From positions 1 to 59,967 of the forward strand of contig JAKAKE010000084.1 of assembly GCA_021824625.1 (NCBI GenBank): 59,967 nucleotides of DNA, in the 5' to 3' direction. Source of the stretch: Bacteroidota bacterium (lineage in GTDB: Bacteria > Bacteroidota > Ignavibacteria > Kapaibacteriales > UBA2268). Of the stretch, positions 3,967 to 44,507 are shown piece after piece. A program made the translations under genes and the position numbers. The first letter of the stretch is position 1. The number at the start of each line of letters is the position of its first letter. Below the pieces are notes generated by a model. That model was given only the letters and a program-made list of their open reading frames with translations, had not been told where the DNA came from and made no database searches.

Positions 3967-3996
3967 AAGACTTTTAATGTAAAACAAAGGGAGAAA

Positions 3997-8557: not shown

Positions 8558-8581
8558 ATAATAACCTCTTCATCCTTATCC

Positions 8582-9469: not shown

Positions 9470-9490
9470 TGATTAATTAGTTAATAAATC

Positions 9491-10190: not shown

Positions 10191-10201
10191 ATTTCACAAC
10201 C

Positions 10202-10513: not shown

Positions 10514-10522
10514 CCATGCACC

Positions 10523-12786: not shown

Positions 12787-13574
12787 TTTTTCTGACCTGC
12801 GATATTATTTTTTCTGCCTTTTATTAATAAAATTGATAAAAATACAATCACAAACAAAAGAAGAATTCCACCTGCTACTTTGGTGAAATTAAAAACATAT
12901 TTTTTCCCATCGGAATCGTAGCTGTAACAGAATTGCAGGACTTTGTTAATCGTCGGTGACGATTTCCCCCCATTTGCCTCAAGCAGAGCCATTTTCAAGT
13001 CGAAAGGTAAAAATGTGGTGCCGAATAAATATCTGGAAATTATTCCCTTCGGTGATATAACAATGACAGTAGAAGCATGAATAAAATCATCTGCTGTATC
13101 CCTCTTGAAATAAAATCCAACGGCATCTGTTAGAGTCCTGATACTTGCACTATCTCCAACCATAAACCGCCATGAATCATTTGGAATCTTTTTCTCCAAA
13201 CCTGCGAGATAATTATTTTTCCATTTGTAGGCATCAGCCGCAGTTTCGTTTTGGTCAAAACTAATAGTTATAACCTGGTAATCCTTACCTGCTGCCATAT
13301 CCATTTTATCAATTGTCTCGCTCAGTCCGTTCAGAAGCGGGGTGCATATATTCGGACAATGATAATAAACGAGTGCAAGAACTGTTGGTTTGTTTATTAT
13401 AGAACCAAGGCTCGCAGTATCACCCGATGAATTAACGAACCTGAGGTTTAACGGAATCGTTTTCCCAAGCTGTTCCTCAAGTCCAACTTCCGGTTTTCTC
13501 CTGTTCTCAGAATAAGAGTTTACAATACATGCAAACAAGAAAGCAAAGAGCAATATTAAATATTTCAAATTCAT
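12783..13574 (-). CDS. SCO1/SenC family copper chaperone (thioredoxin-like)
   Basis: Signal or anchor sequence, the CxxxC motif in 'YYHCPNICTPLL' and a downstream 'FIHASTVIVISPKG' His region. A C-terminal TM helix is also present. Confidence 0.8.
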   Translation of the reverse strand: MNLKYLILLFAFLFACIVNSYSENRRKPEVGLEEQLGKTIPLNLRFVNSSGDTASLGSIINKPTVLALVYYHCPNICTPLLNGLSETIDKMDMAAGKDYQVITISFDQNETAADAYKWKNNYLAGLEKKIPNDSWRFMVGDSASIRTLTDAVGFYFKRDTADDFIHASTVIVISPKGIISRYLFGTTFLPFDLKMALLEANGGKSSPTINKVLQFCYSYDSDGKKYVFNFTKVAGGILLLFVIVFLSILLIKGRKNNIAGQKK

Positions 13575-13583
13575 ATTATTAAT

Positions 13584-14522
13584 TCAAATTGTTTGATTTA
13601 TTTTAATTAATCCCAATAAATAATTATATAAAATTGACAATTCGTCATTGGACAACAGCAATACATCAGCCCTGAACCCGCTCTGTCTGTTAGTAGAAAC
13701 AAAATTTAAAAATTCGTTTATACCTGTTCTCCAGATATGCGATTTCAATAAAGTTGAAACAACGGTTTTCTTATTCACAACCGCCTTATTGAAAACATTG
13801 TATCCTGTTTCAGACGGATTATTATCAATATGTTCGATGATTTTTTTCACAATATCAATTTCCGGTTTCGATTCTTCTTCCAATTTTACAAGCGCCATGC
13901 TAACTGGAATCTGAGAGGGGACCTTTTTCCCGGCAGAGAGGCTGTAAGTCTGGTCCATATCTTTAATTTCACTTTCAGTCGGAGCAGGAAGACCTGGAGC
14001 AATAATTCTCATATAATGCATAATATTCAGCCTGTCCCCGACAGGAAGAAAATCATATGAAGTCATACCTGTTTTGGGAATTCCATCCTGCAGGGTTTTG
14101 AAAATTTGTGAAAAGCTGTTCCCGTTTTTCCATCCTTCGGAGGAATGATAATTTCTCGGTTTTGGCACTAAAGCCAAGCCGCCGGGACCGTCTCCGTTCC
14201 CTTTTTCACCATGACAGACCGAACAATTTGCAATATAAAGTTCCTTGCCTTTTTGAATCTGCTTTTCAGTCGGCTTGCTGATTGAAGCTAAATCAATTCC
14301 TGTTGACACTTCACCCTTAACAGGTGTTAAATCTTCGACTACAGTGGTGGTGTCCTTCAGAGCAGGCGGAATCTCGTTTGTATAAATAACATCGAGCTTA
14401 TGAATATAGATAAGCCCGATGATAACAAATGCTGTTATAAAATATGGATATACGATGCCAAACCACCTGACAGGTGTTTTCAGCACATTCCTGAAGTTTA
14501 TTTCTATTTCTCTTTTATTCAT
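13584..14522 (-). CDS. Membrane-anchored monoheme cytochrome c with an extra C-terminal domain of about 130 aa
   Basis: One N-terminal TM helix. 'CSVCHGEKGNGDGPGGLALVPKPRNY' is a class I cytochrome c motif. I do not recognise the C-terminal third. Confidence 0.7.
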   Translation of the reverse strand: MNKREIEINFRNVLKTPVRWFGIVYPYFITAFVIIGLIYIHKLDVIYTNEIPPALKDTTTVVEDLTPVKGEVSTGIDLASISKPTEKQIQKGKELYIANCSVCHGEKGNGDGPGGLALVPKPRNYHSSEGWKNGNSFSQIFKTLQDGIPKTGMTSYDFLPVGDRLNIMHYMRIIAPGLPAPTESEIKDMDQTYSLSAGKKVPSQIPVSMALVKLEEESKPEIDIVKKIIEHIDNNPSETGYNVFNKAVVNKKTVVSTLLKSHIWRTGINEFLNFVSTNRQSGFRADVLLLSNDELSILYNYLLGLIKINQTI

Positions 14523-14558
14523 ATCCTGCTTATGTATTTCCTTTTTTTCAAATCAACA

Positions 14559-15749
14559 TTACAAATGAAACTCTATGCTTCGTTTCAGTCTGGGGTCGCC
14601 TATCGGCAATAGGTTCGTATTTTTTGCCCTAATTGTAAAAATTAAAATAATTATACCGGCACAAAGTATGGGATAACCAAGTTCATTCCAGCTAAATGCG
14701 ATTCCCGATTTGCTGTAATTCGGCATAACGAGCCAGTACAAATCATAATAATGACTGAACAGTATCCAGATTGCCGCAATCTTCAATCTCTTTGGGTCTT
14801 TTTTAGACGGCTGAGTTAAAAGTAAAGCATAAGGAACGACAAACCTGAAAATAATCAATCCAAGTGTTATAAATTTCCAGCTTCCTTCCCATCTGTTGAT
14901 GAACCAGTATGTTTCTTCCGGTAAATTAGCATACCAAATCAAAAGGAACTGGCTGAAAGCAATATATGCCCAAAAGTTTGTGAATGCGAACATCAAAGCA
15001 CCGAGGCTGTAATAATGGTCACTTTTTATTTTCACTCCGAACATATCCAAATCGGCTAACCTGACAACGGCAAAAGTTGTTGCGGCAAGAGCCGCCATTA
15101 AGCTGCCCGAAAAATAATAAACACCGAAAATTGTTGAAAACCAGTGGGGTTCGAGGCTCATAAGCCAGTCAACAGCAACTATTGTTATTGTTATTCCGAA
15201 GAAAGGCATGAAGATTGCGGCAAAGATTGTATTCCTCTTTGTCTGGCTCTGCTCCATGGTTATGTCCTGCTTCTTTGAATTGCCTATAAATATAAAATAA
15301 AAGATGCCCCAAATAATGAAAATAACTGCCAGCCTCACAAAAAAGAATGTTTCATTCAGGTATGGAGATTTCCCCGCAAGTATAGTATCCTTTGCAACTA
15401 CATCCGCTTGTGACCAATGAAATACGCTGTGCATATTCAACAAAAAAGGCAGGGCAAGAATCGGTACGATAAAAATTACTGCACTTAAAAATTCGGTTAT
15501 TCTCCTGAATACAACACTCCAAACCGCACCTGCGAGATATTCCAAAGCTATAAGAAATAGTGAAGCAACTCCGATACTAAGTACAAATGTAGACCCGATT
15601 ATGCTGTTATATGCAGTCCTTTCGGGATTTGTTATATATGAAACTATTACAATAATCAAACCTAAGACTGTAAATGCCAAACCTGCATATTTTGCCTTGA
15701 CGGGTAATTCTTTTTTCTGATAATCCAATGTGAAGCCTGTATCGCTCAT
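14559..15749 (-). CDS. actF: Alternative Complex III subunit ActF (NrfD-like integral membrane subunit)
   Basis: 396-aa polytopic membrane protein directly after ActD/E with an overlapping start and stop, which is the position of ActF in act operons. Confidence 0.75.
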   Translation of the reverse strand: MSDTGFTLDYQKKELPVKAKYAGLAFTVLGLIIVIVSYITNPERTAYNSIIGSTFVLSIGVASLFLIALEYLAGAVWSVVFRRITEFLSAVIFIVPILALPFLLNMHSVFHWSQADVVAKDTILAGKSPYLNETFFFVRLAVIFIIWGIFYFIFIGNSKKQDITMEQSQTKRNTIFAAIFMPFFGITITIVAVDWLMSLEPHWFSTIFGVYYFSGSLMAALAATTFAVVRLADLDMFGVKIKSDHYYSLGALMFAFTNFWAYIAFSQFLLIWYANLPEETYWFINRWEGSWKFITLGLIIFRFVVPYALLLTQPSKKDPKRLKIAAIWILFSHYYDLYWLVMPNYSKSGIAFSWNELGYPILCAGIIILIFTIRAKNTNLLPIGDPRLKRSIEFHL

Positions 15750-16882
15750 TTCAAATCATCCTCCTTAGCATTGACTGCCCTTTGTAAAGCCCTGACATAC
15801 AGCACAACAGCCCATCTCTCGTCAGGCGTCAACTGTTGAGAGTATGACGGCATTATGTTTTGCCCTTCTGTAATGACAGCGAAAATTCTTCCGTCGTGCC
15901 AATTTCTCACCTTATCGGAATGAAGGCTTGGCGGATTAGGAAACTGACCGTTGAGTCTTGCATCTCCCTTTGCAAAGCTGCCATGGCAGGGACTGCAATA
16001 TGTGTTAAATTTCTTTTTGCCGAGTGACAGAGTTCTTTCATCAGGAAAATATGGATTCACTAACTTTTCACCTGCTGTGTCGGGCTGCCCGGCGAATAAG
16101 TAAGGCATCGAGCCTCTTGCGACAGTTCCGGGAACAGGATTTCTCATTCCGAATCCGTCTTTAAAAATCTTGCTGTGGCTTTGAGGCATCACCCTGCTTT
16201 GCTCCATCATCCAGTTGAATGGGTCCATGTATAATAATTTATTCAATGTGAAATATGATGCACCGGAAATTACAATGGCAGTGAATATAAGAAAAACTAT
16301 GAATTTTGGTTCAAATATTTTTGGCTTTTTATCGAACTCTTCATCAAAATTAATTTCACTTATTTTCTTTGCACCAAGTTTTTCAAAAAGATTTTTCACT
16401 CTAACTACATCAAATAGTGAATCCTCGGCTTCAATACTTATTCCGAATTTGTCAAGCGATACGCTTTTCATGTAATCCGTATCATGCAAAGGATGGCTCA
16501 GGTTCGGAAATCTGAAATACAGAAATAACATTGTCAGGACTGTACCGACAGAAGCCAATAAAACTGTTACTTCAAAAGTAACCGGAATGAAAGCAGGGAA
16601 GGCAAAGAAGGGCTTGCCTCCGATCACGACAGGGTAGTCTTTTGACATAGTCCACCACATAAAGAATAATGCTCCGATTGCTCCCGTCAAACCCAGAACC
16701 AGTGCAAAATATCCGAGTTTCGATGGCGGAAGTTTCATTTTGATATCCAAACCATGCACAGGATAAGGTGTGTTTACATCATATTTTGTATATCCTTCCT
16801 TCTGCACAACTTCGACAGCCTGTACTATTTCATCAGGGGTATCGAACAAACCGGTAACTGAATATAAATTTCTATTGTCCAT
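15746..16882 (-). CDS. actDE: Fused ActD (DUF3341-like) and ActE (monoheme cytochrome c) subunit of Alternative Complex III
   Basis: The N-terminal half 'YSVTGLFDTPDEIVQAVEVVQKEGYTKYDVNTPYPVHGL' plus two TM helices is ActD-like. The C-terminal half has one CxxCH ('YCSPCHG') and 'IMPSYSQQLTPDERWAVVLYVRAL', which is ActE-like. It is a single uninterrupted 378-aa ORF. Confidence 0.75.
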   Translation of the reverse strand: MDNRNLYSVTGLFDTPDEIVQAVEVVQKEGYTKYDVNTPYPVHGLDIKMKLPPSKLGYFALVLGLTGAIGALFFMWWTMSKDYPVVIGGKPFFAFPAFIPVTFEVTVLLASVGTVLTMLFLYFRFPNLSHPLHDTDYMKSVSLDKFGISIEAEDSLFDVVRVKNLFEKLGAKKISEINFDEEFDKKPKIFEPKFIVFLIFTAIVISGASYFTLNKLLYMDPFNWMMEQSRVMPQSHSKIFKDGFGMRNPVPGTVARGSMPYLFAGQPDTAGEKLVNPYFPDERTLSLGKKKFNTYCSPCHGSFAKGDARLNGQFPNPPSLHSDKVRNWHDGRIFAVITEGQNIMPSYSQQLTPDERWAVVLYVRALQRAVNAKEDDLK

Positions 16883-18252
16883 TACTGAGCATCTCCATGA
16901 TGTGTTGGCTGTCCTCCTGTAATAACACTCTTAACTTCGGCAATCGAGACCACAGGCATTGTCTTGATAAATATTAGAATCCATGTAAAGAAAAATCCGA
17001 AACTGCCAATCAATATTCCTGTGTCAATTACCGTTGGTGTATAAAATCCCCAACTTGACGGCAGGTAATCCCGTGATAGTGAAGTAACTATAATAACAAA
17101 TCTTTCGAACCACATTCCGACATTGACCAGCACTCCGATTGTAAACATTAAGGGAATCGAGCGGCGGATTTTCTTAATCCAGAACAATTGAGGGAAGAGC
17201 ACATTACAGCTTACCATTGTCCAGTATGCCCAGGCATAATCACCGAATGCACGGTTCACAAATGTGAACACTTCGATAGGGCTGCCGCTGTACCATGCTA
17301 TGAAAAATTCCATTGCATAAGCATAGCCGACCATCGAGCCTGTAACAATAATAATCTTGTTCATCTTCTCGAGTGTGTCGAGAGTTATGATATGCTCATA
17401 ATTGAAAATTTTCCTGACAAATATCAGAACGTTCTGCACCATCGCAAATCCAGAGAACACAGCACCTGCAACGAAATATGGCGGAAATATAGTCGTGTGC
17501 CACCCGGGAAGAATGGACACAGCAAAGTCGAAGCTGACAATTGTATGCACTGACAACACAAGCGGTGTGGCAAAACCGGCAAGAACCAGGTACACCATTT
17601 CGTAATGATGCCAATGCCTGTTAGAGTGCCTCCAGCCAAGGCTTACGATTGAATAAATAACTTTCTTGACTTTGTTAACTGTTTTATCTCTTAAGGTTGC
17701 AAAATCGGGGATTAATCCGACATACCAGAAAATAAACGACACTGTAAAGTATGTTGACACTGCAAACACATCCCACAATAAAGGGGATGTGAAATTAACC
17801 CAAAGTGCGTTTTGATTAGGATATGGGAATAACCACCCGTCTAACCAGGGCCTGCCAACGTGGATTAATGGGAATAATCCCGCTGTCATTACTGCAAAAA
17901 TAGTCATGCCTTCGGCGAACCGGGCTATGCCCGTTCTCCACTTTTGCCTGAATAAAAATAATATTGCGGATATTAATGTTCCTGCATGGCCGATACCCAC
18001 CCAAAAAACGAAGTTCACTATATCGAATGCCCAGCCTACGGGATTGTTGTTACCCCACATTCCTGTACCATAAATAAATGTCAACATAAGACAGGTTGCT
18101 CCGAAAAGCAGCAAGGAAACAGATATTGCCAAAGCAATATAGTATTTCTTATTAGGTCTTGTCTCGAGCGGCTTTGATATTACATCGGTAATCTCGGCAA
18201 ACGTGTTTTTACCTTCAATGACCGGCAGTTCCTGTGAATAATCAAAACTCAC
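16882..18252 (-). CDS. actC: Alternative Complex III subunit ActC (NrfD/PsrC-type quinol-interacting membrane subunit)
   Basis: 456-aa protein with 10 or more hydrophobic helices, placed immediately after ActB with overlapping junctions. Confidence 0.85.
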
Positions 18253-21200
18253 GATTGAACCTCCTCCGCTTTGTTTCTCAATCTTGCAATGTAAGTTACA
18301 TTTGGCTTAATATTCAACTCTTCCAAAACATGATACCCAAGTTTGTGATTTCTTATATAATCAATAGCCGAATCCTTTTCGTGTGCATCTCCAAAAGTAA
18401 TTGCCTCGGCAGGGCATGCTTCCTGGCACGCTGTCTTAACTTCCGAACCTTTGAGTTGCACTCCGTTCTTAATGGCTTCCTGCCTTGCTTCCATAATTCG
18501 CTGAACGCAGAATGTGCATTTTTCCATTACACCACGTGAGCGTACTGTAACTTCGGGATTCTGCATCAGGCTCAGTGAGTCCTTATTATAATAGCCGTCT
18601 GCTAAATGATTCCTGAAATTATAGAAATTGAATCTTCTGACTTTATAAGGACAGTTGTTCGAGCAGTACCGTGTTCCAACGCACCTGTTATAAATCATTT
18701 GGTTCAGTCCGTCAGGACTGTGATTAGTTGCAACTACGGGACATACATTTTCGCATGGTGCATCATCGCAGTGCATGCAAAGCATTGGCTGGTTGCTCGT
18801 TTCAGGCTGTTCCGCAGAATTGCTGAAATACCTGTCAACTCTAATCCAGTGCATTTCCCTGCCAACAAGCACCTGCTCTTTGCCGACTATGGGAACATTG
18901 TTTTCGACATTACATGCTGAAACGCAGATACCGCATCCGACACATTTGTTCAGGTCAATTGCCATTGCCCATTTTGTGCCTGTGTATTGTACCCTGTTGA
19001 CAATTGAAATATCTTCTGTTTTCGGTTTTCCATCCTTGAAGAAATCTGGATTTTTAATGTAAGCCGCGATTGTGCCTTCCTGGATAATATGTCTTTGTTT
19101 AGGAAACCCCATCACCTCCGGCTCATTTATTGCATGATGCTCCTGTGTTGAAGCAAATTTATATTTTCCGTTTGCTTTTGAGATTTTTACATCTCTAATC
19201 AGCATTTGTGCATTGTTTTTATTTGACATTAATTGAATTCCGTCAAATCCGACATTAGAACCTATTGTTCCACCGAACTTTCTTCCGTAGCCAAGTTCGA
19301 TGGATAGGACATCATCAGCCATTCCGGGTTGTATCATCACAGGAAAAGCTATCTTTTTACCGCTTGCATTTATATCAATCATATCTCCGATTTTTACACC
19401 AATTTGCCTGGATGTATTCAACGATATAGCCGCATAATTATCCCAAGTTACTTTTGATACGGGATGAGGCAACTCTTGCAGCCAACCGTTGTTTGAAAAC
19501 CTTCCGTCCCCGATTGTATAATTCCTGGTCAACATCAGAACGTTTCCGTTTGATGGTTTGTATTCAAACTTATCTGATGTTGTGAAATTAAACTGCATAG
19601 TTGGAATTGGTGCTTTGTAATTCACAACACCATCATTTAATGCTGCGAACCAGAATGAACGGAAATCAGAAGCTAAATGAAGCATTTGATAAATATTCTG
19701 TTCCCAGTTTTTCATTATGTATTGATGATAGCCATCTTCCGAATAATTCTCAGCGTTTCCACCCAACCATTGATGAAGTATTGATTCCTTCTGCCTTGTA
19801 TTATACAGCGGTGCAATCACAGGCTGTTGCAAGCTGTATAGTCCTGTTCTTGTCTGAAAATCTCCCCAGCTTTCAAAGTTGTGATGAATAGGCAGAACGT
19901 AATTGCTTCTCATAGAAGATTCATTCTCATTCTCACACATTGTTACAACCACAGGTACTTTCTTTAAAGCAGTTGCATATCCATAATCATTTGAAAAATG
20001 GAAAACCGGATTAGTGTCCAAATGCAGAACAACAGCCACATTCCCGCTATTCATTGAATTAATCAGCGATTCAATTTCTGCATTTTCTGAAAGTGGCATT
20101 TGTTTGACATTGCCTCTTTCTTTATTATACAATGCATTATTACCAAGTACTTCATTTAATAGGTTAACAGCTATATGAATAACTTCCGGAAGAATATCTC
20201 CGGCATATACAATTGATTTTCCTTTATTCGATATTAGGTCATTCACAAGTGAAAATAAAACGCTCTCGGATAGTTTGAATTTATTTGCAAAATCAATAAG
20301 TTTATGTTCCTTGATTTTTGTTTCGATTTCTGAATTTAGAACCGTTGAAGAATCTTTCCTGACAAAAATAATTTCATTCAACAGGCTCATTACAAATTCA
20401 AACTGTGCATCGGGCCTGATTCTCAGCCTGTGGTCAGAATTCATTCCCGTAAGGCTCATTCCGCCTTCGGCAACATAAAGCCTGTTGAAATTCTTTGCGT
20501 CATCAACATTTCTTTTCCCCGCAAACAATCTAATCTGCTCTACAAAGTTTCCTTCATTACCGAGAAAATCCGATTCAAGCGAAAGTATAACATTTGCATC
20601 ACTCCAGCTAATCACAGGAAAGTTTGATTCGCCATAACATCTTTTCCATGCTGACTGCCTGTTTTTATCATTAAAAAGTTCATAAGAATATATTTTCGTT
20701 GTCGGATATTTTGATTTGAAATCCTCAAATAGTTTGTTCTGTGATGGTGATAATACCGAGTGAGTTATGATCGTAATTTCTTTATTATCTGCCGAAGCTT
20801 TATTCAATGCTTCAATAATTTTATTATCAATATCCTTCCAGTCAGCCGGTTTGAATTTACCGTTAGCTCCCGACAAAGGCTCTTTCAGCCTTTCCGGGTC
20901 ATATAGATTTAAAATGTTTGCTTGTCCTGCGGCACAAATCTTCCCTTTACTAACAGGATGGTCGGGATTGCCGTCTATTTTAATCGGTCTGCCTTCCCTC
21001 GTTTTAATCAAAATTCCACATGCATTTGCACAACCTGTGCAGGTTGAAGAATAATAATTTGCAACTCCGATTGTCATGTCATCGGGCTTTTTGTTGTAAG
21101 GAATGATTTCACCTTTGTCCCTGTAATCTGTACATGCCGTAGCCGCAAAAGCCGCAGAAGCACCTGCCAGAGCAAGAAATTTCCTCCGTGAATGTGATGG

Positions 21201-21332
21201 CATGTCTTCAGGTTTAAACTCATCAGTCATTCCGGGTGCAAACTCATTGTCCTTTGCTTTTGCTAAATTGAGGCTGTTTTTCAAGTCGTCTAAGCTAAGC
21301 CAGAACTTCTTATTTTCTTCATTCCTGCTCAT
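18249..21332 (-). CDS. actB: Alternative Complex III subunit ActB (molybdopterin-oxidoreductase-like domain fused to a 4Fe-4S ferredoxin-like domain; TAT signal)
   Basis: Twin-arginine motif '[20 protein letters not shown]'. N-terminal Cys cluster '[36 protein letters not shown]'. C-terminal clusters '[16 protein letters not shown]', '[14 protein letters not shown]', '[13 protein letters not shown]', 'CTFC' and 'CQEACP'. 1027 aa. Confidence 0.9.
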
Positions 21333-35233: not shown

Positions 35234-35630
35234 ATGATGACTAAACAAGAACATATACAATATTGGATTAATTCTTCCGAGGAAGATTGGAAATCAGTAT
35301 TATCACTATTTCAAAGCGGAAGAAATGTTCATTGTTTATTCTTTGCACATTTAACTTTAGAAAAATTATGCAAAGCTATATGGGTAAAAAAACAATGAAG
35401 ATAATTTCCCTCCCAAAACTCATAATTTGGGAAAAATATTAAATGAAACTAATCAGAATTTCAATGAAGATGATTTAGCATTTTTGGTTGAATTCAACGA
35501 CTTTCAATTAGAAGGGAGATATCCCGATTATTTGTTTGAGATAAATAAAAGATGTAATAATGAAAACACAACATCAATTTTAAATAGAGTAAAATCAATA
35601 AGACTATGCTTACAAGAGAAATTGCAATAG
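35234..35630 (+). pseudogene. HEPN domain protein gene interrupted by a frameshift in an A7 run (35386-35392)
   Basis: Frame 1 encodes 'MMTKQEHIQYWINSSEEDWKSVLSLFQSGRNVHCLFFAHLTLEKLCKAIWVKKQ*'. The +1 frame continues 'KNNEDNFPPKTHNLGKILNE...LEGRYPDY...'. Removing one A restores a continuous HEPN protein. Its 'PPKTHNL' and 'EGRYP' line up with 'PPYTHNL' and 'EARYP' of the intact paralogue at 51475-51873. Confidence 0.75.
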
Positions 35631-35938
35631 AAACAGCCAAAACATTTGTTAATGAGTTACTATCTAATGGAATAAAATTAGATAAGGCTCTGTTATTCGG
35701 TTCTTATGCTAAAAATTATCAGAATGAGTCATCAGATATTGATGTTGCATTAGTATCTGAGATGTTTACAGGTTTTGGTTTTGAAGATAGAAAATATTTT
35801 TCAAGAATTAATATTAAGAAGGAATTTATTGATATCGAAACAAAAACTTATGCGACAAAGTATTTTGAAAGCAGTGACCCTTTTATCGAAGAAATTAAAA
35901 AAACAGGAATAGAAATTTATAATAGAACAGAAATTTAG
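35606..35938 (+). CDS. Nucleotidyltransferase domain protein (MNT-type partner of HEPN)
   Basis: 'LLFGSYAKNYQNESSDIDVALV' is the GS-x9-10-DxD minimal nucleotidyltransferase motif. It overlaps the HEPN 3' end by 25 nt. Confidence 0.8.
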   Translation: MLTREIAIETAKTFVNELLSNGIKLDKALLFGSYAKNYQNESSDIDVALVSEMFTGFGFEDRKYFSRINIKKEFIDIETKTYATKYFESSDPFIEEIKKTGIEIYNRTEI

Positions 35939-35994
35939 CTGATTCTTGATTATTTCATTTACATTAATTATTATCTAAGAACAAAATTATAAGG

Positions 35995-36047
35995 CCACCC
36001 TTAAATACCTTCCCTAATTATGGAGGGGAATAAAAGGGGTGGTTTTT
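35995..36047 (+). terminator. Putative terminator after the HEPN/MNT pair
   Basis: Imperfect long hairpin CCACCCTT...AAGGGGTGG with an inner CCTTCCC/GGAGGGG segment, followed by TTTTT. Confidence 0.45.
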
Positions 36048-36087
36048 ATAATTTATAAAAAACCCTTATTTTTGTATTGTTATTATT

Positions 36088-36133
36088 GGCGATGGAGTTC
36101 GCCATCGAACGCTGAGAAAGCTGATGACTCCTG
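36088..36133 (+). promoter_or_regulatory. Fluoride riboswitch aptamer (crcB RNA motif)
   Basis: GGCGATGGAGTTCGCCATCGAACGCTGAGAAAGCTGATGACTCCTG. It has P1 GGCG/CGCC, the pseudoknot GGAGU with ACUCC, AAC plus a short GCU/AGC hairpin, and the conserved UGAUG. The element order matches the Thermotoga petrophila aptamer as I recall it. Confidence 0.85.
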
Positions 36134-36177
36134 TTAAAAGTAATCATAACGATTTCTTTTGACAGGAGTTTTTTTTT
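36128..36177 (+). terminator. Riboswitch expression platform: intrinsic terminator
   Basis: 13-bp stem CTCCTGTTAAAAG (36128-36140) paired with CTTTTGACAGGAG (36156-36168), with one G-U pair, followed by T9 (36169-36177). The 5' arm shares CTCC with the aptamer pseudoknot strand. Confidence 0.85.
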
Positions 36178-36198
36178 AAACATAAGTTCAAAAATAAC

Positions 36199-37350
36199 AT
36201 GAAAGATATAGCAGTTGCTTCAATAATCGCATTTATAGTTCTAATCGCATCGGTAATATCAATAGAATTCGGCATTGCTGCAGCAATAATTGAAATCATA
36301 CTCGGTGTTGTTGCAGGTAATACCTTCAATTTACAACCCACTGCTTGGCTCACTTTTATTGCTTCGCTTGGAGGAGTTCTATTGACTTTTCTGGCAGGTA
36401 CTGAAGTTGACCACAAAATTTTAAAAGAAAAGTTTTGGACGAGTGTTCTTATAGGCGGCATATCTTTTATCCTTCCATTTCTATTTGTATTTGGTTATAC
36501 CTATTATATAGCAGGCTGGACATTAGATGCATCTAAAATTGCAGGAATTGCACTCTCAACGACATCCCTTGCAGTAGTATATGCTGTATTGGTTGAAACA
36601 GGTTTGAATAAAACAGAACTTGGAAAAATATTGATGGCTTCGACATTTATTACCGATTTTGGGACAGTGCTGGCTCTTTCGATTTTATTTTTACAGTTTA
36701 ATTATTTAAGCATTGTATTTCTTATATTTTCTACTTTACTGTTAATACTCGGTCCTAAATTACTCAAATTCTTTTTCCAAAGGTATGGCAATAAAGTGAT
36801 TGAACCGGAAATAAAATTGCTGTTCTTAATCTTATTTTTCACAATGTTTATTGGAGAAATAGGTAGCAGTCACGCTGTACTGCCAATATTTATTTTTGGA
36901 TTGCTTCTTTCTCCATTCTTTGCAGAGAACAAACAATTTATCAGGAAGTTGAGAACAATAGGATTTGCACTGATTACACCGTTTTTCTTTATCAAGGGTG
37001 GAATGTTAGTAGGTTTTAATGATTTGATTACAAACATTTCTTTGATATTAATTTTATTAGCAATTAAAGTGACATCGAAAATAATAGGAGTTTACCCAAT
37101 AGCCCGGATGAGATTGCCAAGAGGTGGAAGAGTATTTTTAACATTGCTTATGAGCACCGGCTTAACTTTCGGAACGATTTCATCTGTTTTTGGATTGCAA
37201 AGCGGTTATATCAACAAATCACAATTTACAATACTGATAGCTGTTGTGATACTTTCAGCAGTAGTTCCGACAATAATAGCACAGCGTTATTGGGCACCAG
37301 CCTCACCCGAATTAAAAGAGGAAATTTCCGAGAGAGGTGAAATGGATTAA
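36199..37350 (+). CDS. Cation:proton antiporter (Na+/H+ exchanger family, CPA type)
   Basis: 383-aa protein with about 11-12 TM helices. 'GGVLLTFLAGTEVD' and the general Na_H_Exchanger-like profile. It is the first gene after the fluoride riboswitch. Confidence 0.7.
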   Translation: MKDIAVASIIAFIVLIASVISIEFGIAAAIIEIILGVVAGNTFNLQPTAWLTFIASLGGVLLTFLAGTEVDHKILKEKFWTSVLIGGISFILPFLFVFGYTYYIAGWTLDASKIAGIALSTTSLAVVYAVLVETGLNKTELGKILMASTFITDFGTVLALSILFLQFNYLSIVFLIFSTLLLILGPKLLKFFFQRYGNKVIEPEIKLLFLILFFTMFIGEIGSSHAVLPIFIFGLLLSPFFAENKQFIRKLRTIGFALITPFFFIKGGMLVGFNDLITNISLILILLAIKVTSKIIGVYPIARMRLPRGGRVFLTLLMSTGLTFGTISSVFGLQSGYINKSQFTILIAVVILSAVVPTIIAQRYWAPASPELKEEISERGEMD

Positions 37351-37444
37351 TCACAATTACATTAATTTGCATTTTTTAAAAGATGATATTATTAATAAAT
37401 ATACATTGAATATTTAAACTTTAATTCTTATTTATCAATAACAA

Positions 37445-38659
37445 GTGAAATTCGATAAAAAATCAGCTATACGTTTCATTATTCTTCTCGGAATAATAAG
37501 TCTGCTGGGTGATGTTATGTATGAGGGTGCCCGCAGTGTAAATGGTCCCTATCTGAAAATATTGGGAGCAAATGCAGTTGTTGTCGGATTTATTGTCGGT
37601 TTGGGTGAATTGCTCGGCTATGGAATACGTATTGTTTCAGGATATTTCACAGACAAAACAAAAGCATACTGGCTGTTTACGATTATCGGTTACGGTGTAT
37701 TAATAACTGTACCGCTCTTGTCTTTAACAGGTGTCTGGCAGTTTGCGGCATTGTTTATGATTTTGGAGAGAATAGGCAAGGCGATACGAAGCCCGGCAAA
37801 AGATACGATACTCTCGCAGGCGACTAAGCAGGTGGGTACAGGTTTCGGTTTTGGACTGCACGAGTTTTTCGACCAAATTGGAGCAGTTATTGGCCCTCTT
37901 ATTTTTGCATCTTTGTTCTATTTTATAGGCAGTGGTTCAAAGTCTACAGCTGATTATCAAAAAGGATATTCAATTTATTTTTATGTTTTTATTTTGTTAA
38001 TGGCAGCCGTTTTTTTTACGTACTTTTTATTCAAAAATCCCGAGAAATTTGAAACAGCAAAACCACAAACAGAAGATGAAGATAAATTATCGAGAACTTT
38101 TTGGTTATACACCGTATTTACTTTTCTGGCAACATTCGGTTTTGTCAGTTTTGTTTTAATCGGCTACCATTTGAAGCAGAACAATATTATCAGCGATTCG
38201 GCAATCCCTCTGTTCTATGCAATAGCAATGGGTGTGGATGCCGTTATTTCTTTGGTAATCGGTAAAATTTATGATAATCTGAAGAAAAAGAGAAACAACG
38301 AACAGGAAGGATTGCTTGCCTTATTTATTATTCCGATTTTAACCGCAATAATACCTGCTCTTGTTTTTTCAAGTAATGTAATATTGATTTTTATTGCCGT
38401 ATTCATTTGGGGTGTCGTTATGGGTACTCACGAAACAATAATGAAAGCCGCTATCGCAGACATTACATCAATGAAGAAACGAGCTACGGGATATGGGATA
38501 TTTAATACTGCTTATGGTTTGTCCGTTTTCATCGGAAGCATAGTAATAGGTTTATTATACGATTATTCGATAACCTTGTTGATAATAATTCTAATATTTT
38601 TTGAGATTTTATCAATACCTGTTTTATATAAATTGACTAAGGAAGTAAAAAAGACATAA
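37445..38659 (+). CDS. MFS-type transporter
   Basis: 404 aa with a 12-helix profile in two halves separated by a charged loop ('PQTEDEDKLSR'). GTG start. Confidence 0.6.
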   Translation: MKFDKKSAIRFIILLGIISLLGDVMYEGARSVNGPYLKILGANAVVVGFIVGLGELLGYGIRIVSGYFTDKTKAYWLFTIIGYGVLITVPLLSLTGVWQFAALFMILERIGKAIRSPAKDTILSQATKQVGTGFGFGLHEFFDQIGAVIGPLIFASLFYFIGSGSKSTADYQKGYSIYFYVFILLMAAVFFTYFLFKNPEKFETAKPQTEDEDKLSRTFWLYTVFTFLATFGFVSFVLIGYHLKQNNIISDSAIPLFYAIAMGVDAVISLVIGKIYDNLKKKRNNEQEGLLALFIIPILTAIIPALVFSSNVILIFIAVFIWGVVMGTHETIMKAAIADITSMKKRATGYGIFNTAYGLSVFIGSIVIGLLYDYSITLLIIILIFFEILSIPVLYKLTKEVKKT

Positions 38660-39445
38660 ATGAAAAGTGAAATATTAAATACAAACGAACTGACTCATTT
38701 CTTCGGTGAGAAGTTTGAATTTATTGATTCCGGTTTTTCAACCGGTCAGTTTAATATGGATTTTGATGTTCAGAGAACAATTGATGTCGCAGAAGGCAAG
38801 GCATTACCAATGTTTCGTGTGTATGGATGGATTCCCTGGGCTGTTTCGCTGGGATATAATCAGAAAGAAGAAGATATAGATAAGGAGAAATGTGAAAAAA
38901 AGGGATTTGATCTTGTCCGAAGGCCTACGGGCGGTAGGGCAGTACTCCATGCCAACGAAATCACATATTCTGTGGTAGTCAACTTACCCGATGGAAGAAC
39001 TATTCACGATATTTACAGGGAAATTCATACAATTTTATTAAAAGCATTTATTTCCATGGGCTGTAAAAATATTGGGTTTCAAAAAGCCCAGACTGACTTC
39101 AGGGAGCATTATAAAAGTCCGGGAATGTCAGTATCCTGCTTTACGAGCTCGGCAAGATATGAAATCGAATATGAAGGTAGAAAAGTAGTCGGAAGCGCCC
39201 AAAGACTTTTCGGTAAAACTTTACTTCAGCATGGTTCAATATTATTATCGAAGGGTCATGAGCAAATTGCTGATGTAATTAAATCAAAAAATGAATCTGA
39301 CAGAGAGAAACTGCGTGGATACCTGTCAAATCACTCATCTACACTCGAAGAATCTGCAAGCAGGGAAATAAGCCATGATGAATGCAGGGAAACAATTTTG
39401 AAAATATTTAAGGACGGCTCAATGAATTCATTTTTTTTTGAATAA
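38660..39445 (+). CDS. Lipoate-protein ligase / octanoyltransferase family protein (BPL_LplA_LipB domain)
   Basis: 'VRRPTGGRAVLHANEITYSVV' and 'GRKVVGSAQR' are the LplA/LipB-type motifs, including the catalytic Lys. The ATG directly abuts the MFS stop codon. Confidence 0.7.
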   Translation: MKSEILNTNELTHFFGEKFEFIDSGFSTGQFNMDFDVQRTIDVAEGKALPMFRVYGWIPWAVSLGYNQKEEDIDKEKCEKKGFDLVRRPTGGRAVLHANEITYSVVVNLPDGRTIHDIYREIHTILLKAFISMGCKNIGFQKAQTDFREHYKSPGMSVSCFTSSARYEIEYEGRKVVGSAQRLFGKTLLQHGSILLSKGHEQIADVIKSKNESDREKLRGYLSNHSSTLEESASREISHDECRETILKIFKDGSMNSFFFE

Positions 39446-39824: not shown

Positions 39825-42530
39825 ATGATAAAAAATTTCTATTACCTTATCGGACTAATAATTATATTATTTTGCTCACGCATTGATGCACAAAGTTTTG
39901 ACCCCGCAGCCATACCTCAAAAGTATGGTTCGACACATTGGGGAACAGATTTCTGGCTGACATTTCACCCTAATTATCAAGTTCCCCAATCTTCTAATTC
40001 AATCAGGATTTACATAACTTCAACAGTAGAGACATCCGTAAAATTAGATGTACCCGGCAAAGACTACCATACTCAGTTGAATACAATTCCGAACAATACT
40101 ATTCAATTCGATATTCCGATTACAATAGGTCAGCCTATTTCAGGAGGAATGTCGTTGCCACCTCCAATCGAGCAGGTTTATGACGGAGCAGGTATTCATA
40201 TCACTTCAATGGACCCTATTGTTGTGTATGGTTTAGCAAGAGGCAGCGGGTCAAGCGACGGGTATATGGCTTTGCCGGTATCTACATGGGGCAAGGAATA
40301 TATTATTGCATCATGGGCAGACGGTTCTAATAATAAAACCGAATATATGCCAAGCTATGCAAGCGTTATTGCGGCTTATGACAACACAAGAGTTAGTTTC
40401 ATCCTTGGCGGGAACAGTGGAACCGGAACAAGCGGCGGTATGAAACCCGGTGAATTAAAACAATTTACTCTTTTTAGGGGAGATGTTCTTGTTGTTCCAT
40501 CCATAGAAACTAATTCCGACTTATCGGGAAGTAAAATTTTATCGAACAAACCTGTTGCCGTCGTTACAGGAAACAGATGTGCTGCCATACCCGAAACCGA
40601 AATCACCTGCGACTACCTAATTGAAATGGAATTGCCTACTCAAGTTTGGGGTAAAGAGTTCCACATCGGCCCAATCAACAAAAGGAAAAAGAACCCAATA
40701 ATCAAAATAATGTCTAAAGAGGAAGGGAATAAAATCTATAAGAATGGTATTGAAATTGCAACAATTAAATTTATAGGTGGTTTAGAAGGTGATGGCTGGC
40801 TCAGCTTGAGAACCGACAACGGTAATCCGGTTCCAGTTACTATAAGGTCGGAAAAGCCTTCCTGCATAACATTATTTAATCCGTCAAGGGGCGAGGACAC
40901 TGTGAATATTGACCCATTCCAGATGCTTCAAATCCCGGTTGAACATTATCAAAAAGAAATATTTTTTACGACACCAAATGCTAAGAACTATATTGAATTT
41001 CCTACTAACTATATCAATATAATTTATGAATCGGATAATATAGGAACAGTTCCCGATGATTTGGAATTTGCCTGGGAATCATTCGGGAAATTACAGTGGG
41101 AAAGGATAAATTTGACAAGTCCTGCTCCCGGCACTCCCTTTATTGGGACTTTAAGCGGTAAAAGATACTATCTTAAGCAATTCCAGCTGCCCGAATTTGG
41201 TACTTATAAAATCAGAGCCGACAGTCCTATTATGGTGTATTCTTATGGCTATTCTGCAACCTCATCTTACGGCTACCCTGCATCTGCGGTTTTAGCTAAT
41301 CTCGAAAAAGGACTCGACACATTAGCTCCTGTACCTGTTTACACAGTTGAATGTGATGGCACTGTTTATAATGCAAGTATTGAGGATTATCCCCAAAACA
41401 ATGACCGTTCTAATTTATCTGTTGTAGGTTATCAAAATAACAGTAGTTTCAATTATAATTTTTCTTACACAACTTTTATTCCGGGCGAAAAAAATAAAAC
41501 CAACTGGAACCTCGACGTTAAGGACAAGAGCAAGGATGCCAGAGCTGTTATCACCTTTGGCGACAGAACCGGACACGACACAACCATCGTCGTGGATTAT
41601 TTAGTAAGAAAACCTGCATTCAGACAAAAATCTTATGACCTTGGTTTAATCAGGGCAGGAAATGATACCGTGGAGGATATGTGGCTATTAAATCAATCTC
41701 CGACAGCACCTCTTATTCTGAATAATATTTTTTTAAAATATAATGACAGAGGTTTTGAACTTCTTGACGAAAACTTGAATGTTTTGAGTTTTCCATTTAT
41801 ACTTGCACCACTCGATTCTGCGAAGCTAAAACTTAAATTTACCGGTGTACAACCAGGATTGTATTCGGATTCCGTTGGAGTTAGCGATGATTGCTCAACA
41901 TGGATATTAGGTTATGTCAAGGCAGAAAGCGGGAAGCCTAAAATTTCGCTTTCTGACTTTACCTTCCCTGATACATACTTGCAGGCAAAGGCTTCCGGAC
42001 AAATTGTAATTAGGAATGAGGGTAATTTCAATCTTGCTATTACAGATTTCAATCCGCCCGGCGACCCTGCATTCAAAATTGTTATCCGGGAAATTTCCGT
42101 ATCCAACCCTTTAGTATTAGCCCCTGGCCAGTTTTTTACATTCGAAGCTGCTTTTGAACCAACCCAGGAGAAGGATTATATTGACTCTGCCGTATTCGTT
42201 AGCGATGCGGCTGAGACTGACCCGACAACAATTTTGTCAGGTAAAGGTATTGTTAGAACCGGTGTCCCGGATGATAATCCGAATACTAATTATCCGGCAA
42301 TTTATCCCAATCCTGCCGATGACAGACTCGTTGTCAAATTCGATAAACTGCTTTCAGTATTTAATGTAAAGATATTTAATATATATGGTAATAATGTTGA
42401 AGAAAAGACAGTTGAAAATGGGAGAACGGGTTTAACCTTAGATGTATCTAAGCTGTCAAACGGTGTTTATTTCATGCTTATTAACAGCATGAATGGAACT
42501 CTGAAATCGAGTTTCAGTATATTGAGATAA
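39825..42530 (+). CDS. Large T9SS-sorted protein with IgGFc-binding-protein-N-terminal-like domain and Ig-like (PapD/ASH-like) repeats
   Basis: Signal peptide. 'HWGTDFWLTFHPNY...IRIYITS...' and 'GYMALPVSTWGKEYIIASW' resemble the bacterial IgGFc_binding-type domain (recollection only). C-terminal 'IYPNPADDRLVVKF...LSNGVYFMLINS'. Confidence 0.5.
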   Translation: MIKNFYYLIGLIIILFCSRIDAQSFDPAAIPQKYGSTHWGTDFWLTFHPNYQVPQSSNSIRIYITSTVETSVKLDVPGKDYHTQLNTIPNNTIQFDIPITIGQPISGGMSLPPPIEQVYDGAGIHITSMDPIVVYGLARGSGSSDGYMALPVSTWGKEYIIASWADGSNNKTEYMPSYASVIAAYDNTRVSFILGGNSGTGTSGGMKPGELKQFTLFRGDVLVVPSIETNSDLSGSKILSNKPVAVVTGNRCAAIPETEITCDYLIEMELPTQVWGKEFHIGPINKRKKNPIIKIMSKEEGNKIYKNGIEIATIKFIGGLEGDGWLSLRTDNGNPVPVTIRSEKPSCITLFNPSRGEDTVNIDPFQMLQIPVEHYQKEIFFTTPNAKNYIEFPTNYINIIYESDNIGTVPDDLEFAWESFGKLQWERINLTSPAPGTPFIGTLSGKRYYLKQFQLPEFGTYKIRADSPIMVYSYGYSATSSYGYPASAVLANLEKGLDTLAPVPVYTVECDGTVYNASIEDYPQNNDRSNLSVVGYQNNSSFNYNFSYTTFIPGEKNKTNWNLDVKDKSKDARAVITFGDRTGHDTTIVVDYLVRKPAFRQKSYDLGLIRAGNDTVEDMWLLNQSPTAPLILNNIFLKYNDRGFELLDENLNVLSFPFILAPLDSAKLKLKFTGVQPGLYSDSVGVSDDCSTWILGYVKAESGKPKISLSDFTFPDTYLQAKASGQIVIRNEGNFNLAITDFNPPGDPAFKIVIREISVSNPLVLAPGQFFTFEAAFEPTQEKDYIDSAVFVSDAAETDPTTILSGKGIVRTGVPDDNPNTNYPAIYPNPADDRLVVKFDKLLSVFNVKIFNIYGNNVEEKTVENGRTGLTLDVSKLSNGVYFMLINSMNGTLKSSFSILR

Positions 42531-42602: not shown

Positions 42603-44507
42603 TTAATCTTCAGCGAGGACAATAATCCTGTCTTCTTTTGAAAATACCACTCCTTCGGATTTATCGGGATTCACAACCACACCAAAGAATTTATCGGGTT
42701 TGTAAGCATTTTCATGGATTCTATAACCAAAGGCAACCTCTCCGAATTGTGCCGCAGATGCTATTACAGTATAAAAATTAACCGACTTCCCAATTTCGAC
42801 ATAATCGGAAACGGGTTTAAGGTATATTTCTGAGCCTTCGGCATCGAAGAAATCATCAAAAACATATTTCAAATATTTATTTTCGGAAAATTGTGTGAGC
42901 ATAAGGCTTATGAGTTTATCGCTGATAATGAAATCATCCGCCCTGGCAACTTCTGCAAGTGATTGGTTGCGAACATCCAGCATTTCGCTGACAATGCTGA
43001 AATGCTTGCCGCACTGCTCCGAAATATTTCTCAGGTGCAGGAGGCAAATAAGGGTTTGTGCGTCAGCTTCCTGCAGGTCCATGCCTTTTGTATAGCTCAA
43101 AATAATTATATGGTCATAAGATGGTATATCAATTGAATCAAGCTGGCTCCTGAATGTGATGTTACCATACTTGAATTCGACATGTTTATTTTTCAATTTT
43201 GAATTAAGTTCGGCAACAGTATCCTCCATATCGTCATATTCTGCCATAATTAACACTTTGGAACCGGGAGCGGCATAATTATCGAGTTCCTTTATGATTC
43301 TGCTCCCTTTTTCATTCCAACCAAGAACTAAGGATTTTTCCGTAGGCGGCTTTTTTGTTTTTTCATGCTTAATCACACTGCGGTCAATCATAATGTCGGT
43401 CTTACCGGATAGAATAACTGTGTCGTCATCTTCGGAAATTGCAATGATTTTATCACCATCTTTAATCATAGTATTCATCGGCGGATTAACCTGAACTTTT
43501 CCGTTTTTGTATTGCAAACCTATGACAGCCGAGTCTTCATAAGCAAATAATGATTCTTTAAAGGTTCTTCCGATTAACCTTGGTTCATGCTGGAAGTAAA
43601 TTTCATCGCCTGCATAATCGAGAAGTTCTGTGTAAACGACGCTCAGTCCTGACTGGCGGCAGGTTTGTGCTGTAACCTTAGCAACGACATCATAAGAGAG
43701 GACATAAGTTACTTCATCCCTTCCGACAACCGTTGCAGCCTCCAAATTGGCTTCTTCCTTGATTTCGGCAACGATGTGATACTTGTCTTTACGCCTGAGA
43801 GGATTATTCGTTAAGGCAAGAACAGATTTAATAACATGTGTATCGGGATTCGGTGCTTCCGGCGAAATAATAATAATTGACCTTGCATCGTGGGGATTGA
43901 CCATTTCAATATCTGTTATTTCGAGGGGCCTGCCCGACCTGCAAATAACTTTTGTATTCTTTGTGTCAGGGATTTTTGCTTTAATCTCTTCTTCCATTTC
44001 GACTTTGTCTTTATCACCAAGGATTACAATAACAGAATCCCTTTTGTTTTCATTTGCAATTATCAACTCTGAGATGATTGTGAATATTTTTGGTGACCAG
44101 CGGATAATTAATGTGTGAGAGCTTTCGAGTATACGTGACTTACCACGACGCAGATAGTCAATCCGGTTTTTGAATGAATTAGTAATGATACCGATAAGTA
44201 AGCTGAGAAGAAAAACACCGCTCAGTGTAACGAATAGCATTACTATCCTGAAACCCCAGCCGGTGTCGTTGCCCATTGTTCCCGGGTCAAGACTCCTGAT
44301 AAGACTATCCCAAATTGCCTCTATGTATGATATGGAGGATTCGGTATCCTGTGTAAATTGTGCGGCTGCAACGATTGAACCTGCAATTATGACGACAATA
44401 ATTCCAATGACAATCAGCCACCAGAGCAATACAACTGTACCTGCCGAGAGCGTGTTTTCAAATCTATACCTGAATCTTTCAAATAATGTTGGTTTATGAT
44501 AACTCAT
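42603..44507 (-). CDS. CASTOR/POLLUX-related putative ion channel with tandem RCK (TrkA-like) domains
   Basis: The N-terminus 'FERFRYRFENTLSAGTVVLLWWL' plus two TM helices flanking a pore-like loop 'LDPGTMGNDTGWGF' matches my recollection of bacterial CASTOR/POLLUX-like proteins. A large soluble two-lobed C-terminal region follows. Confidence 0.5.
   Translation of the reverse strand: MSYHKPTLFERFRYRFENTLSAGTVVLLWWLIVIGIIVVIIAGSIVAAAQFTQDTESSISYIEAIWDSLIRSLDPGTMGNDTGWGFRIVMLFVTLSGVFLLSLLIGIITNSFKNRIDYLRRGKSRILESSHTLIIRWSPKIFTIISELIIANENKRDSVIVILGDKDKVEMEEEIKAKIPDTKNTKVICRSGRPLEITDIEMVNPHDARSIIIISPEAPNPDTHVIKSVLALTNNPLRRKDKYHIVAEIKEEANLEAATVVGRDEVTYVLSYDVVAKVTAQTCRQSGLSVVYTELLDYAGDEIYFQHEPRLIGRTFKESLFAYEDSAVIGLQYKNGKVQVNPPMNTMIKDGDKIIAISEDDDTVILSGKTDIMIDRSVIKHEKTKKPPTEKSLVLGWNEKGSRIIKELDNYAAPGSKVLIMAEYDDMEDTVAELNSKLKNKHVEFKYGNITFRSQLDSIDIPSYDHIIILSYTKGMDLQEADAQTLICLLHLRNISEQCGKHFSIVSEMLDVRNQSLAEVARADDFIISDKLISLMLTQFSENKYLKYVFDDFFDAEGSEIYLKPVSDYVEIGKSVNFYTVIASAAQFGEVAFGYRIHENAYKPDKFFGVVVNPDKSEGVVFSKEDRIIVLAED

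Follow-up and report, generated by a model that had tools for sequence, protein, structure and literature searches.

The riboswitches of the crcB motif (Rfam family RF01734), which respond to fluoride, precede various genes besides those of fluoride exporters. Genes of 'K+ or Cl- transport' were already reported behind crcB motifs by Weinberg 2010 (PMC2864571), together with terminators that overlap the motif and imply activation by the ligand. According to a 2024 review (PMC11139923), Na+/H+ antiporters are the second most common class of genes associated with fluoride riboswitches, after the exporters, and the same review refers to Baker 2012 as listing Na+/H+ antiporter genes behind these riboswitches. 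For example, the fluoride riboswitch of C. difficile precedes a CLC-NhaP operon (PMC11477304). This work addresses such an association in a stretch of 59,967 nt (60 kb) from a Bacteroidota bacterium, contig JAKAKE010000084.1, hereafter the window, to whose positions all coordinates refer unless a survey locus is named. In this window, a fluoride riboswitch precedes a gene encoding a cation/proton antiporter (CPA), followed by the genes of a transporter of the major facilitator superfamily (MFS) and of a lipoate-protein ligase (LplA). We consider it probable that this riboswitch is a fluoride ON switch for a NapA-like antiporter of the CPA2 type, and very probably also for the MFS gene, the antiporter being predicted to be electroneutral and to serve in the correction of pH and ion balance.

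The closest described systems resemble this locus only in part. In C. difficile, the antiporter is annotated as NhaP-type and its gene comes after the CLC gene in the operon (the published antiporter category is a broad one), whereas the antiporter of the window is a NapA-like CPA2 protein with a Thr-Asp (T-D) motif, and its gene comes directly behind the switch, with no exporter gene in the vicinity. The Na+-I and Li+ riboswitches, which control nhaA and genes of other cation/H+ antiporters, likewise use an elemental ion to turn on an antiporter gene. However, their ligand is the transported cation, while the ligand in the window is an anion, which is probably not a substrate of the antiporter.

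The aptamer was searched with Rfam cmscan over the whole window, using the gathering score of each family (34 bits for RF01734). Of all Rfam families, RF01734 alone reaches this threshold within the 60 kb. The match lies on the + strand at 36079-36140, scores 48.4 bits (E 2.3e-10) and is full-length, as it covers positions 1-64 of the 64 of the model. The presence of a fluoride riboswitch, deduced from the letters alone in a preliminary description of this DNA, is thus established by the very covariance search that had been proposed there as a check. All the aptamer elements named in that description are also found. P1 is formed by GGCG (36088-36091) and CGCC (36100-36103), and the pseudoknot by GGAGU in the P1 loop (36094-36098) and ACUCC in the 3' tail (36127-36131). 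The conserved AAC (36108-36110) is followed by the short P3 hairpin, GCU (36111-36113) with AGC (36119-36121), and by UGAUGA (36122-36127), all on the + strand. There is no structural difference from the RF01734 class, the P3 of the window, with 3 bp and a 5-nt loop, being one of the shorter P3 helices of this class. The ATG of the antiporter gene (36199) lies on the same strand, 58 nt beyond the end of the aptamer, which therefore occupies the position of a 5' leader.

A second covariance model, R1, was trained on 34 aptamers from antiporter loci and used to search all loci. In the window, it finds the same single site (36084-36136, 51.7 bits). Among these 34 aptamers, 94.9% of the cells of the paired columns are paired, versus 38-61% in controls with slid partners, and six pairs, spread over P1, the pseudoknot and P3, show changes on both sides. 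The aptamer structure, including the pseudoknot, is thus supported by covariation. The minimum free energy (MFE) fold has, instead of P1, a longer alternative helix, CGAUGG (36090-36095) with CCAUCG (36102-36107). As long as no ligand is bound, this helix would sequester the two G's with which the 5' pseudoknot strand begins. The survey locus L001, which is the closest relative, is able to form the equivalent of this helix, with one G-U pair. It may be a stabiliser of the OFF state or a coincidence.

The expression platform is an intrinsic terminator at 36126-36177 (+ strand), seen in the MFE fold of 36079-36200. Its hairpin (36126-36170) consists of a lower stem of 15 bp (36126-36140 with 36156-36170) and an upper stem of 4 bp (36142-36145 with 36151-36154), with a one-base bulge between them. 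It is directly followed by nine T's (36169-36177), the first of which can pair within the stem. The fold has a z-score of -6.1, and none of 200 shuffled sequences is equally stable. The hairpin followed by T9 had been recognised in the preliminary description, which counted 13 bp; the hairpin and the T9 tract are borne out, but the stem length had been slightly underestimated. The ACUCC strand of the pseudoknot is also the start of the 5' arm of the terminator, lying within the stem strand 36126-36140, as that description had recognised. Because of this shared strand, aptamer and terminator are mutually exclusive, and fluoride binding should therefore block termination. Without fluoride, ACUCC would pair downstream, the hairpin of 15+4 bp and its U tract would form and transcription would halt ahead of the antiporter gene. 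In the presence of fluoride, which riboswitches of the RF01734 class bind as a Mg2+-F- cluster, the pseudoknot would form, the terminator would be blocked and the RNA polymerase would read into the genes. The ON logic originally proposed is thus the expected one, as the terminator shares the pseudoknot strand and the same logic was put forward by Weinberg 2010 (PMC2864571). From the computed identity of the aptamer and its overlap with the terminator, we infer both the fluoride-dependent read-through and the extent of the transcript. The locus shares with the transcriptional ON type of RF01734 P1, P3, the pseudoknot, the conserved nucleotides, the position in a 5' leader and the competing terminator.

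This platform is found in relatives. L001 retains the terminator hairpin, with wobble changes in its 3' arm. According to a crude test, about 37 of 59 related leaders carry a hairpin and a U tract using the pseudoknot strand; the remaining leaders, mostly from Actinomycetota, Chloroflexota and archaea, have short spacers, which suggests translational control.

The first gene behind the switch (36199-37350, + strand) encodes a protein of 383 aa that matches PF00999 (Na_H_Exchanger) over residues 11-361 (E 1.1e-35, 123.6 bits versus a gathering score of 26.2). The regulated gene is therefore that of a CPA-type antiporter of 383 aa, in agreement with the preliminary description. When a profile of the family was compared with solved structures, NapA from Thermus thermophilus (4bwz) was the sole match (E 2.4e-11). 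NapA, an electrogenic CPA2 Na+/H+ antiporter (4bwz, 5bz2, 5bz3), is thus its best solved relative, aligned over residues 17-355. The alignment places NapA A125-T126-S127-V128 opposite T121-T122-S123-L124 of the antiporter, D156-D157 opposite T152-D153, and K305 opposite K294. The two proteins therefore have in common the T-S pair of transmembrane helix (TM) 4, the second Asp (D157/D153) and the Lys (Lys305/K294). They differ at D156 of NapA, which is Thr152 in the antiporter, in the segment 'PRGEVG' of NapA, which is 'STGLTFG' in the antiporter, and in mode of transport, electrogenic in the former and predicted to be electroneutral in the latter.

The residues of the CPA motif are T121, T122, S123 and L124, then T152 and D153, and finally K294. 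Across 81 sequences of the clade, position 5 lacks Glu (residue 148 is A or S), T152-D153 is found in 80 sequences, the last one having T-N, and K294 is invariant. L124 has a single exception in the set and is replaced by M or V in more distant homologs, the other motif residues being invariant or nearly so. Riboswitch-linked relatives at 41-45% identity have N-D in place of T-D; the idea that T-D would be a unique mark of fluoride linkage was rejected for this reason. The antiporter has the CPA2 features given by Masrati 2018, in that position 5 is not Glu and position 8 is Lys. It lacks the 'DD' motif of the electrogenic CPA2s (D163-D164 in NhaA, D156-D157 in NapA), which is replaced by T152-D153. 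According to Masrati 2018 (PMC6181914), CPA2 proteins with Lys at position 8 and no acidic residue at position 6 are electroneutral, as shown for KEA2. Since Thr152 stands in place of the first Asp, the antiporter is predicted under this motif model to work electroneutrally and to exchange monovalent cations and H+ in a 1:1 ratio.

Homologs of the antiporter bear the database label 'Kef-type K+ transport system membrane component KefB'. KefB, KefC and the plant KEA2 are CPA2 proteins that also combine a polar, non-acidic position 6 with Lys at position 8. However, unlike the Kef proteins (about 600 aa), the antiporter has 383 aa, no C-terminal KTN/RCK domain and no TrkA/RCK match, and therefore is not a Kef system. 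It scores far below the cut-offs of the KefB and KefC equivalogs (37.8 versus 804 for NF002973, 28.5 versus 752 for NF002924), and its TM4 motif is T-T-S-L versus L-S-S-T in the Kef type. A 'Kef-like' mapping of the motif on L119-S120-T121-T122, with the K+ selectivity that it would entail, was rejected, since the NapA alignment sets positions 1-4 at T121-T122-S123-L124.

The association of this antiporter with the riboswitch extends far beyond the window. More than 8000 homologs are found at E < 1e-20, mostly of 383-396 aa and with 53-71% identity across many phyla. Scanning one genome per species gave 80 antiporter loci, with 48-91% identity to the antiporter of the window; they represent over 20 bacterial phyla as well as archaea (Micrarchaeota and Methanoperedens). 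The closest match is in Ignavibacteria bacterium RIFOXYC2_FULL_35_21 (91% identity), so that the window comes from an Ignavibacteria-like organism, and 79 of the 80 loci range from 48 to 71%. A strong aptamer, defined as an R1 match that scores 28 bits or more and lies on the same strand, at most 350 nt 5' of the start codon of the antiporter gene, is present in 52 of the 80 loci. Six weaker aptamers at the same position exceed the Rfam gathering score, which brings the aptamers directly upstream to at least 58 of 80; in seven more loci, an aptamer lies further upstream on the same strand, with another gene between. Overall, at least 65 of the 80 loci have an aptamer upstream of the antiporter gene, and six weak R1 matches below the Rfam gathering score (L007, L019, L032, L051, L075 and L040) were left out of the counts. 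Control by a fluoride riboswitch is thus the normal state for this clade. The preliminary description had regarded the antiporter as an unusual, 'non-canonical' output of a fluoride riboswitch; this view has to be abandoned in the face of these counts and of the two papers that list the class (PMC2864571, PMC11139923). The window is rather a clean and compact example of a gene association known since 2010-2012, and this instance brings nothing new about the riboswitch mechanism. What the survey adds is that the clade is almost always behind an aptamer, that it has a fixed T-D/K signature and that it frequently has MFS and dynamin-like partners, which makes its role easier to test. A riboswitch of another class was met in L032, from a metagenome-assembled genome of Bacillota, where a molybdenum-cofactor riboswitch (RF01055, 68.1 bits) lies at 9942-10061 (+), a few kb from the antiporter locus.

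The canonical fluoride exporters were looked for in the window and in the survey loci by tblastn, using CrcB, Fluc and ClcA seeds. The CrcB seeds recover the CrcB genes of L010, L035 and L145, the last one being confirmed as PF02537. The ClcA seed missed the CLC gene that Pfam identifies in L131 and is unreliable. In the window, no seed gives anything better than E = 1, and a scan for signature motifs gives nothing relevant. Furthermore, all ten other open reading frames (ORFs) with several TMs lack PF02537 and PF00654, and match instead cytochrome oxidase subunits, UbiA, NrfD, YfhO, Lnt and PrsW. The window therefore carries no crcB gene, according to tblastn and Pfam, and no CLC gene, according to Pfam scans, on which the latter statement rests because of the failure of the ClcA seed in L131. 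This upholds what had been proposed from the letters, but does not extend to the remainder of the genome. Among the 80 antiporter loci, CrcB is found within 6 kb of the antiporter gene in two, and no CLC was found near it with the ClcA seed, the one that missed the CLC of L131.

The transcription unit under the control of the riboswitch probably has a clear 5' limit. Upstream lies a gene of 110 aa encoding a nucleotidyltransferase (35606-35938, + strand; Pfam Polbeta/NTP_transf_2). It is followed by a terminator-like hairpin, GGCCACCCUU...AAGGGGUGGUU, with a U run (35993-36047, + strand; ViennaRNA fold of 35939-36060, -31.7 kcal/mol). This hairpin is likely the terminator of the nucleotidyltransferase gene; being strong and followed by a U run, it implies that the riboswitch begins a new unit. 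The nucleotidyltransferase itself resembles the MntA antitoxin, although its score for the NCBIfam MntA model is below the cut-off, and no obvious gene of a HepT-type partner follows it.

The consensus TAnnTTTG is that of the -7 element of Bacteroidetes-type promoters. A candidate element of this type, TATTTTTG, lies at 36067-36074 (+ strand), 13 nt 5' of P1, and the equivalent site of L001 reads TAATTTTG. On its + strand, the window has just 33 copies of the motif, i.e. about one per 1.8 kb, and a scan of that strand finds none in the spacer between the antiporter and MFS genes or in the region before LplA. The element at 36067-36074 thus weakly suggests a single promoter for the unit. A scan for sigma-70-type promoters gave sites no commoner than in shuffled sequence and was not used.

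Downstream of the antiporter gene, an AT-rich spacer of 94 nt (37351-37444, + strand) shows no terminator-like hairpin: the terminator scan finds no site in it, and the fold of 37340-37450 reaches just -9.1 kcal/mol. It leads to the MFS gene (37445-38659, + strand), which begins with GTG and encodes 404 aa (MFS_1, E 4e-27, 95.5 bits versus 33.4). This protein reaches the cut-off of no NCBIfam equivalog, and its best solved relative is a weak match, the L-lactate MFS transporter 6g9x (E 1.6e-4). The ATG of the LplA/LipB-type lipoate-protein ligase gene (38660-39445, + strand; 261 aa, LplA-B_cat, E 9e-30) is flush with the stop codon of the MFS gene. Gene coordinates and Pfam thus agree with the earlier statement that the MFS gene lies 94 nt after the antiporter gene and that the ligase gene abuts its stop. 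The MFS gene is very probably co-transcribed with the antiporter gene, to judge from the spacer, and LplA, from its position alone, may well be the last gene of this transcript.

The neighbourhoods of other homologs bear on the extent of this unit. Genes near the antiporter were called by direct blastp and tblastn with the window's own proteins, and a separate survey with an MFS profile yielded 80 metagenome loci. MFS homologs with 37-46% identity adjoin the antiporter in about nine other distant loci, from Chloroflexota, Actinomycetota, Deltaproteobacteria and others, and the MFS gene has its own aptamer in L080, L068 and L072. In 25 of the 80 metagenome MFS loci, at least one fluoride aptamer is found within 4 kb, and at least 17 have an antiporter gene. 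Some of these operons are clear fluoride operons ending with the MFS gene, such as aptamer-crcB-pyrophosphatase-MFS in L145, aptamer-CLC-MFS in L131, aptamer-dynamin GTPase-MFS in L139 and aptamer-antiporter-enolase-prenyltransferase-like-MFS in L081. The MFS family is large and well conserved, with members at 59-66% identity in Bacteroidales, Thermoplasmatota and Omnitrophota. Around the closest MFS homologs (56-65% identity, L085-L113), the flanks, which are often short, mostly contain neither aptamer nor antiporter. The link of the MFS to fluoride operons is thus recurrent but not obligate. No paper linking fluoride riboswitches with this MFS family was found in the searchable literature.

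In L001, the gene order is aptamer-antiporter-MFS-dynamin-family GTPase-LplA. The order of antiporter and MFS genes is therefore kept, with a spacer of 60 nt, and the gene of a dynamin-family GTPase (8485-10113 of L001), which the window lacks, stands between MFS and LplA. L001 is also the only one of the 80 loci with an LplA homolog near the antiporter. LplA as a conserved member of a fluoride module was therefore rejected, as it is near the antiporter in L001 only and not adjacent to the MFS gene there. The fluoride-responsive operon proposed in the preliminary description thus stands in part: the MFS gene plausibly belongs to the unit and recurs in other phyla, whereas LplA is a lineage-specific neighbour without any observed link to fluoride.

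It is possible, although we think it rather unlikely, that the riboswitch controls the antiporter alone, that MFS and LplA are served by a separate promoter within the 94-nt spacer and that their adjacency to the antiporter is incidental. This spacer is AT-rich and could harbour an unrecognised promoter, a point that the sigma-70-type scan, at the level of shuffled sequence, cannot decide, and most of the closest MFS homologs have no aptamer or antiporter around them. Against this stand the adjacency of MFS and antiporter genes in distant phyla, the MFS homologs at the end of clear fluoride operons, the spacer devoid of hairpin and TAnnTTTG, and the same gene order with a 60-nt spacer in L001.

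A fluoride ON switch for the antiporter gene, and very probably for the MFS gene, raises the question of what the antiporter does under fluoride. Most likely, it would correct the disturbance of pH and ions caused by the entry of hydrogen fluoride (HF) and by the accumulation of fluoride as a weak acid. The review PMC11139923 relates the Na+/H+ antiporters behind fluoride riboswitches to the maintenance of pH during fluoride stress. From these elements, we infer which ions would be carried, in which direction and to what physiological end. Several points weigh against this interpretation. The helpful direction of exchange is not obvious, since a cation/H+ antiporter driven by the proton-motive force normally brings H+ in and thus adds acidification. 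No functional study of any CPA antiporter associated with a fluoride riboswitch was found in the searchable literature. With 87.5 bits, the antiporter is below the cut-off of 238.3 for TIGR00932 (CPA2 subfamily), so that, judged by its sequence, it is related to this subfamily but outside its trusted range. Its ion selectivity cannot be read from the motif, in which position 1 is polar, as in the K+ type, and position 4 non-polar, as in the Na+ type. Finally, co-transcription of MFS and LplA is argued solely from the failure to detect terminators or promoters in DNA that is rich in AT.

The first of these points leads to another reading with the same riboswitch mechanism, which we hold to be possible but clearly less probable: the antiporter would collapse the pH gradient rather than defend the cytoplasmic pH. 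Electroneutral influx of H+ for efflux of K+ or Na+ would lower the gradient that drives HF entry and F- trapping, as [F-]in/[F-]out follows 10^deltapH, and would shift the proton-motive force to the membrane potential, which drives F- out through Fluc channels. The motif fits this reading, as position 6 is not acidic (T, or N in distant members) while D7 and K8 are kept, a combination predicted to be electroneutral (Masrati 2018), and the normal direction of such an antiporter under the proton-motive force is inward for H+. Fluc export also depends on the electrical gradient (PMC11139923). However, the same review reads these antiporters as counteracting acidification.

Export of fluoride by the antiporter itself is unlikely. 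A more general form of this idea is that the CPA clade handles fluoride, with or without the MFS, as CLC-F does within the CLC family, and confers resistance without CrcB or CLC-F. The NhaA fold also serves anion carriers in the wider CPA/AT superfamily. In addition, riboswitch control is near-obligate in the clade (at least 65 of 80 loci), CrcB is within 6 kb in just 2 of the 80 loci, no CLC was found with a seed that is itself unreliable, and the window has neither. An identity of 48-71%, as seen in 79 of 80 loci, is also unusually high for a comparison between phyla and domains, and the ion-site motif departs from DD. However, the cation-binding Asp and its partner Lys of CPA antiporters are retained, and the fluoride regulon holds many non-exporter genes, including here those of enolase, pyrophosphatase and MutS-like proteins. 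Furthermore, the antiporter or the MFS shares its operon or locus with CrcB or CLC in L010, L035, L145 and L131, which fits an accessory role. Fluoride handling by the clade thus appears improbable. It is doubtful, but a little less so, that the T/N-D CPA2 clade, the MFS and the dynamin GTPase form a recurrent fluoride module of bacteria and archaea in which the role of the antiporter goes beyond pH housekeeping; if it were true, the antiporter of this module, alone or together with the MFS, might directly reduce the accumulation of fluoride or replace CrcB/CLC-F where they are missing. No description of such a module was found in the searchable literature. Whether the antiporter defends pH, collapses the gradient or handles fluoride matters for microbial fluoride tolerance and for the engineering of hosts that degrade organofluorine compounds. 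As for a chance match or a decayed sequence without regulatory function, it is scarcely credible in view of the E value of 2.3e-10 with a full-length match, of the presence of every conserved aptamer position together with an overlapping terminator, and of the recurrence of this arrangement in the relative with 91% identity and across dozens of other phyla.

Other genes recur in the neighbourhood of fluoride riboswitches. A dynamin-family GTPase (Dynamin_N, 540-650 aa) is found in fluoride-riboswitch operons at 20 of 160 loci, including L001 (8485-10113), L007, L009, L030, L034, L139, L154, L158, L024 and L075, and its gene is often immediately preceded by a separate aptamer (L009, L030, L034, L007, L139 and L154). 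No paper bringing together the fluoride riboswitch and a dynamin-family GTPase was found in the searchable literature. Some loci carry tandem aptamers about 70-110 nt apart on the same strand, at 2140-2194 and 2266-2322 of L146, where the pair precedes an antiporter homolog, and at 3976-4039 and 4151-4214 of L144. L158 carries four aptamers (507-562 and 2887-2946 on the - strand, 3050-3105 and 6144-6196 on the + strand) and L121 three. Some metagenome loci thus look like 'fluoride islands', with 3-4 aptamers within 9 kb, divergent around MFS, antiporter and dynamin-like genes.

Behind aptamers or in fluoride operons are also found genes encoding DUF6062, MutS domain V, HEAT-repeat, TPR and prenyltransferase-like alpha-alpha toroid proteins (L048 5032-5964; L049 2690-4222, - strand; L046 5451-5918; L067 5477-5953; L048 10852-11247; L121 3126-3953; L081 2825-3646), the HEAT-repeat proteins being behind weak aptamer matches only. 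Four aptamer-linked ORFs have no Pfam match (L059 4392-4943, L043 9980-10480, L039 9015-9791 and L072 7197-8555).

In the window, LplA is followed by the gene of a surface protein sorted by the type IX secretion system (39825-42530). An ORF of 634 aa on the other strand (42603-44507, - strand), which begins some 3 kb beyond the fluoride unit and shows no sign of a connection to it, combines Castor/Pollux, RCK and TrkA domains and encodes a putative cation channel. Far upstream and unrelated to the riboswitch, a respiratory cluster (7256-21332, - strand) encodes cytochrome c oxidase subunits I, III and IV, a UbiA-type prenyltransferase and a cytochrome c protein, as well as an NrfD-like membrane protein whose gene lies beside an ORF of 1027 aa.

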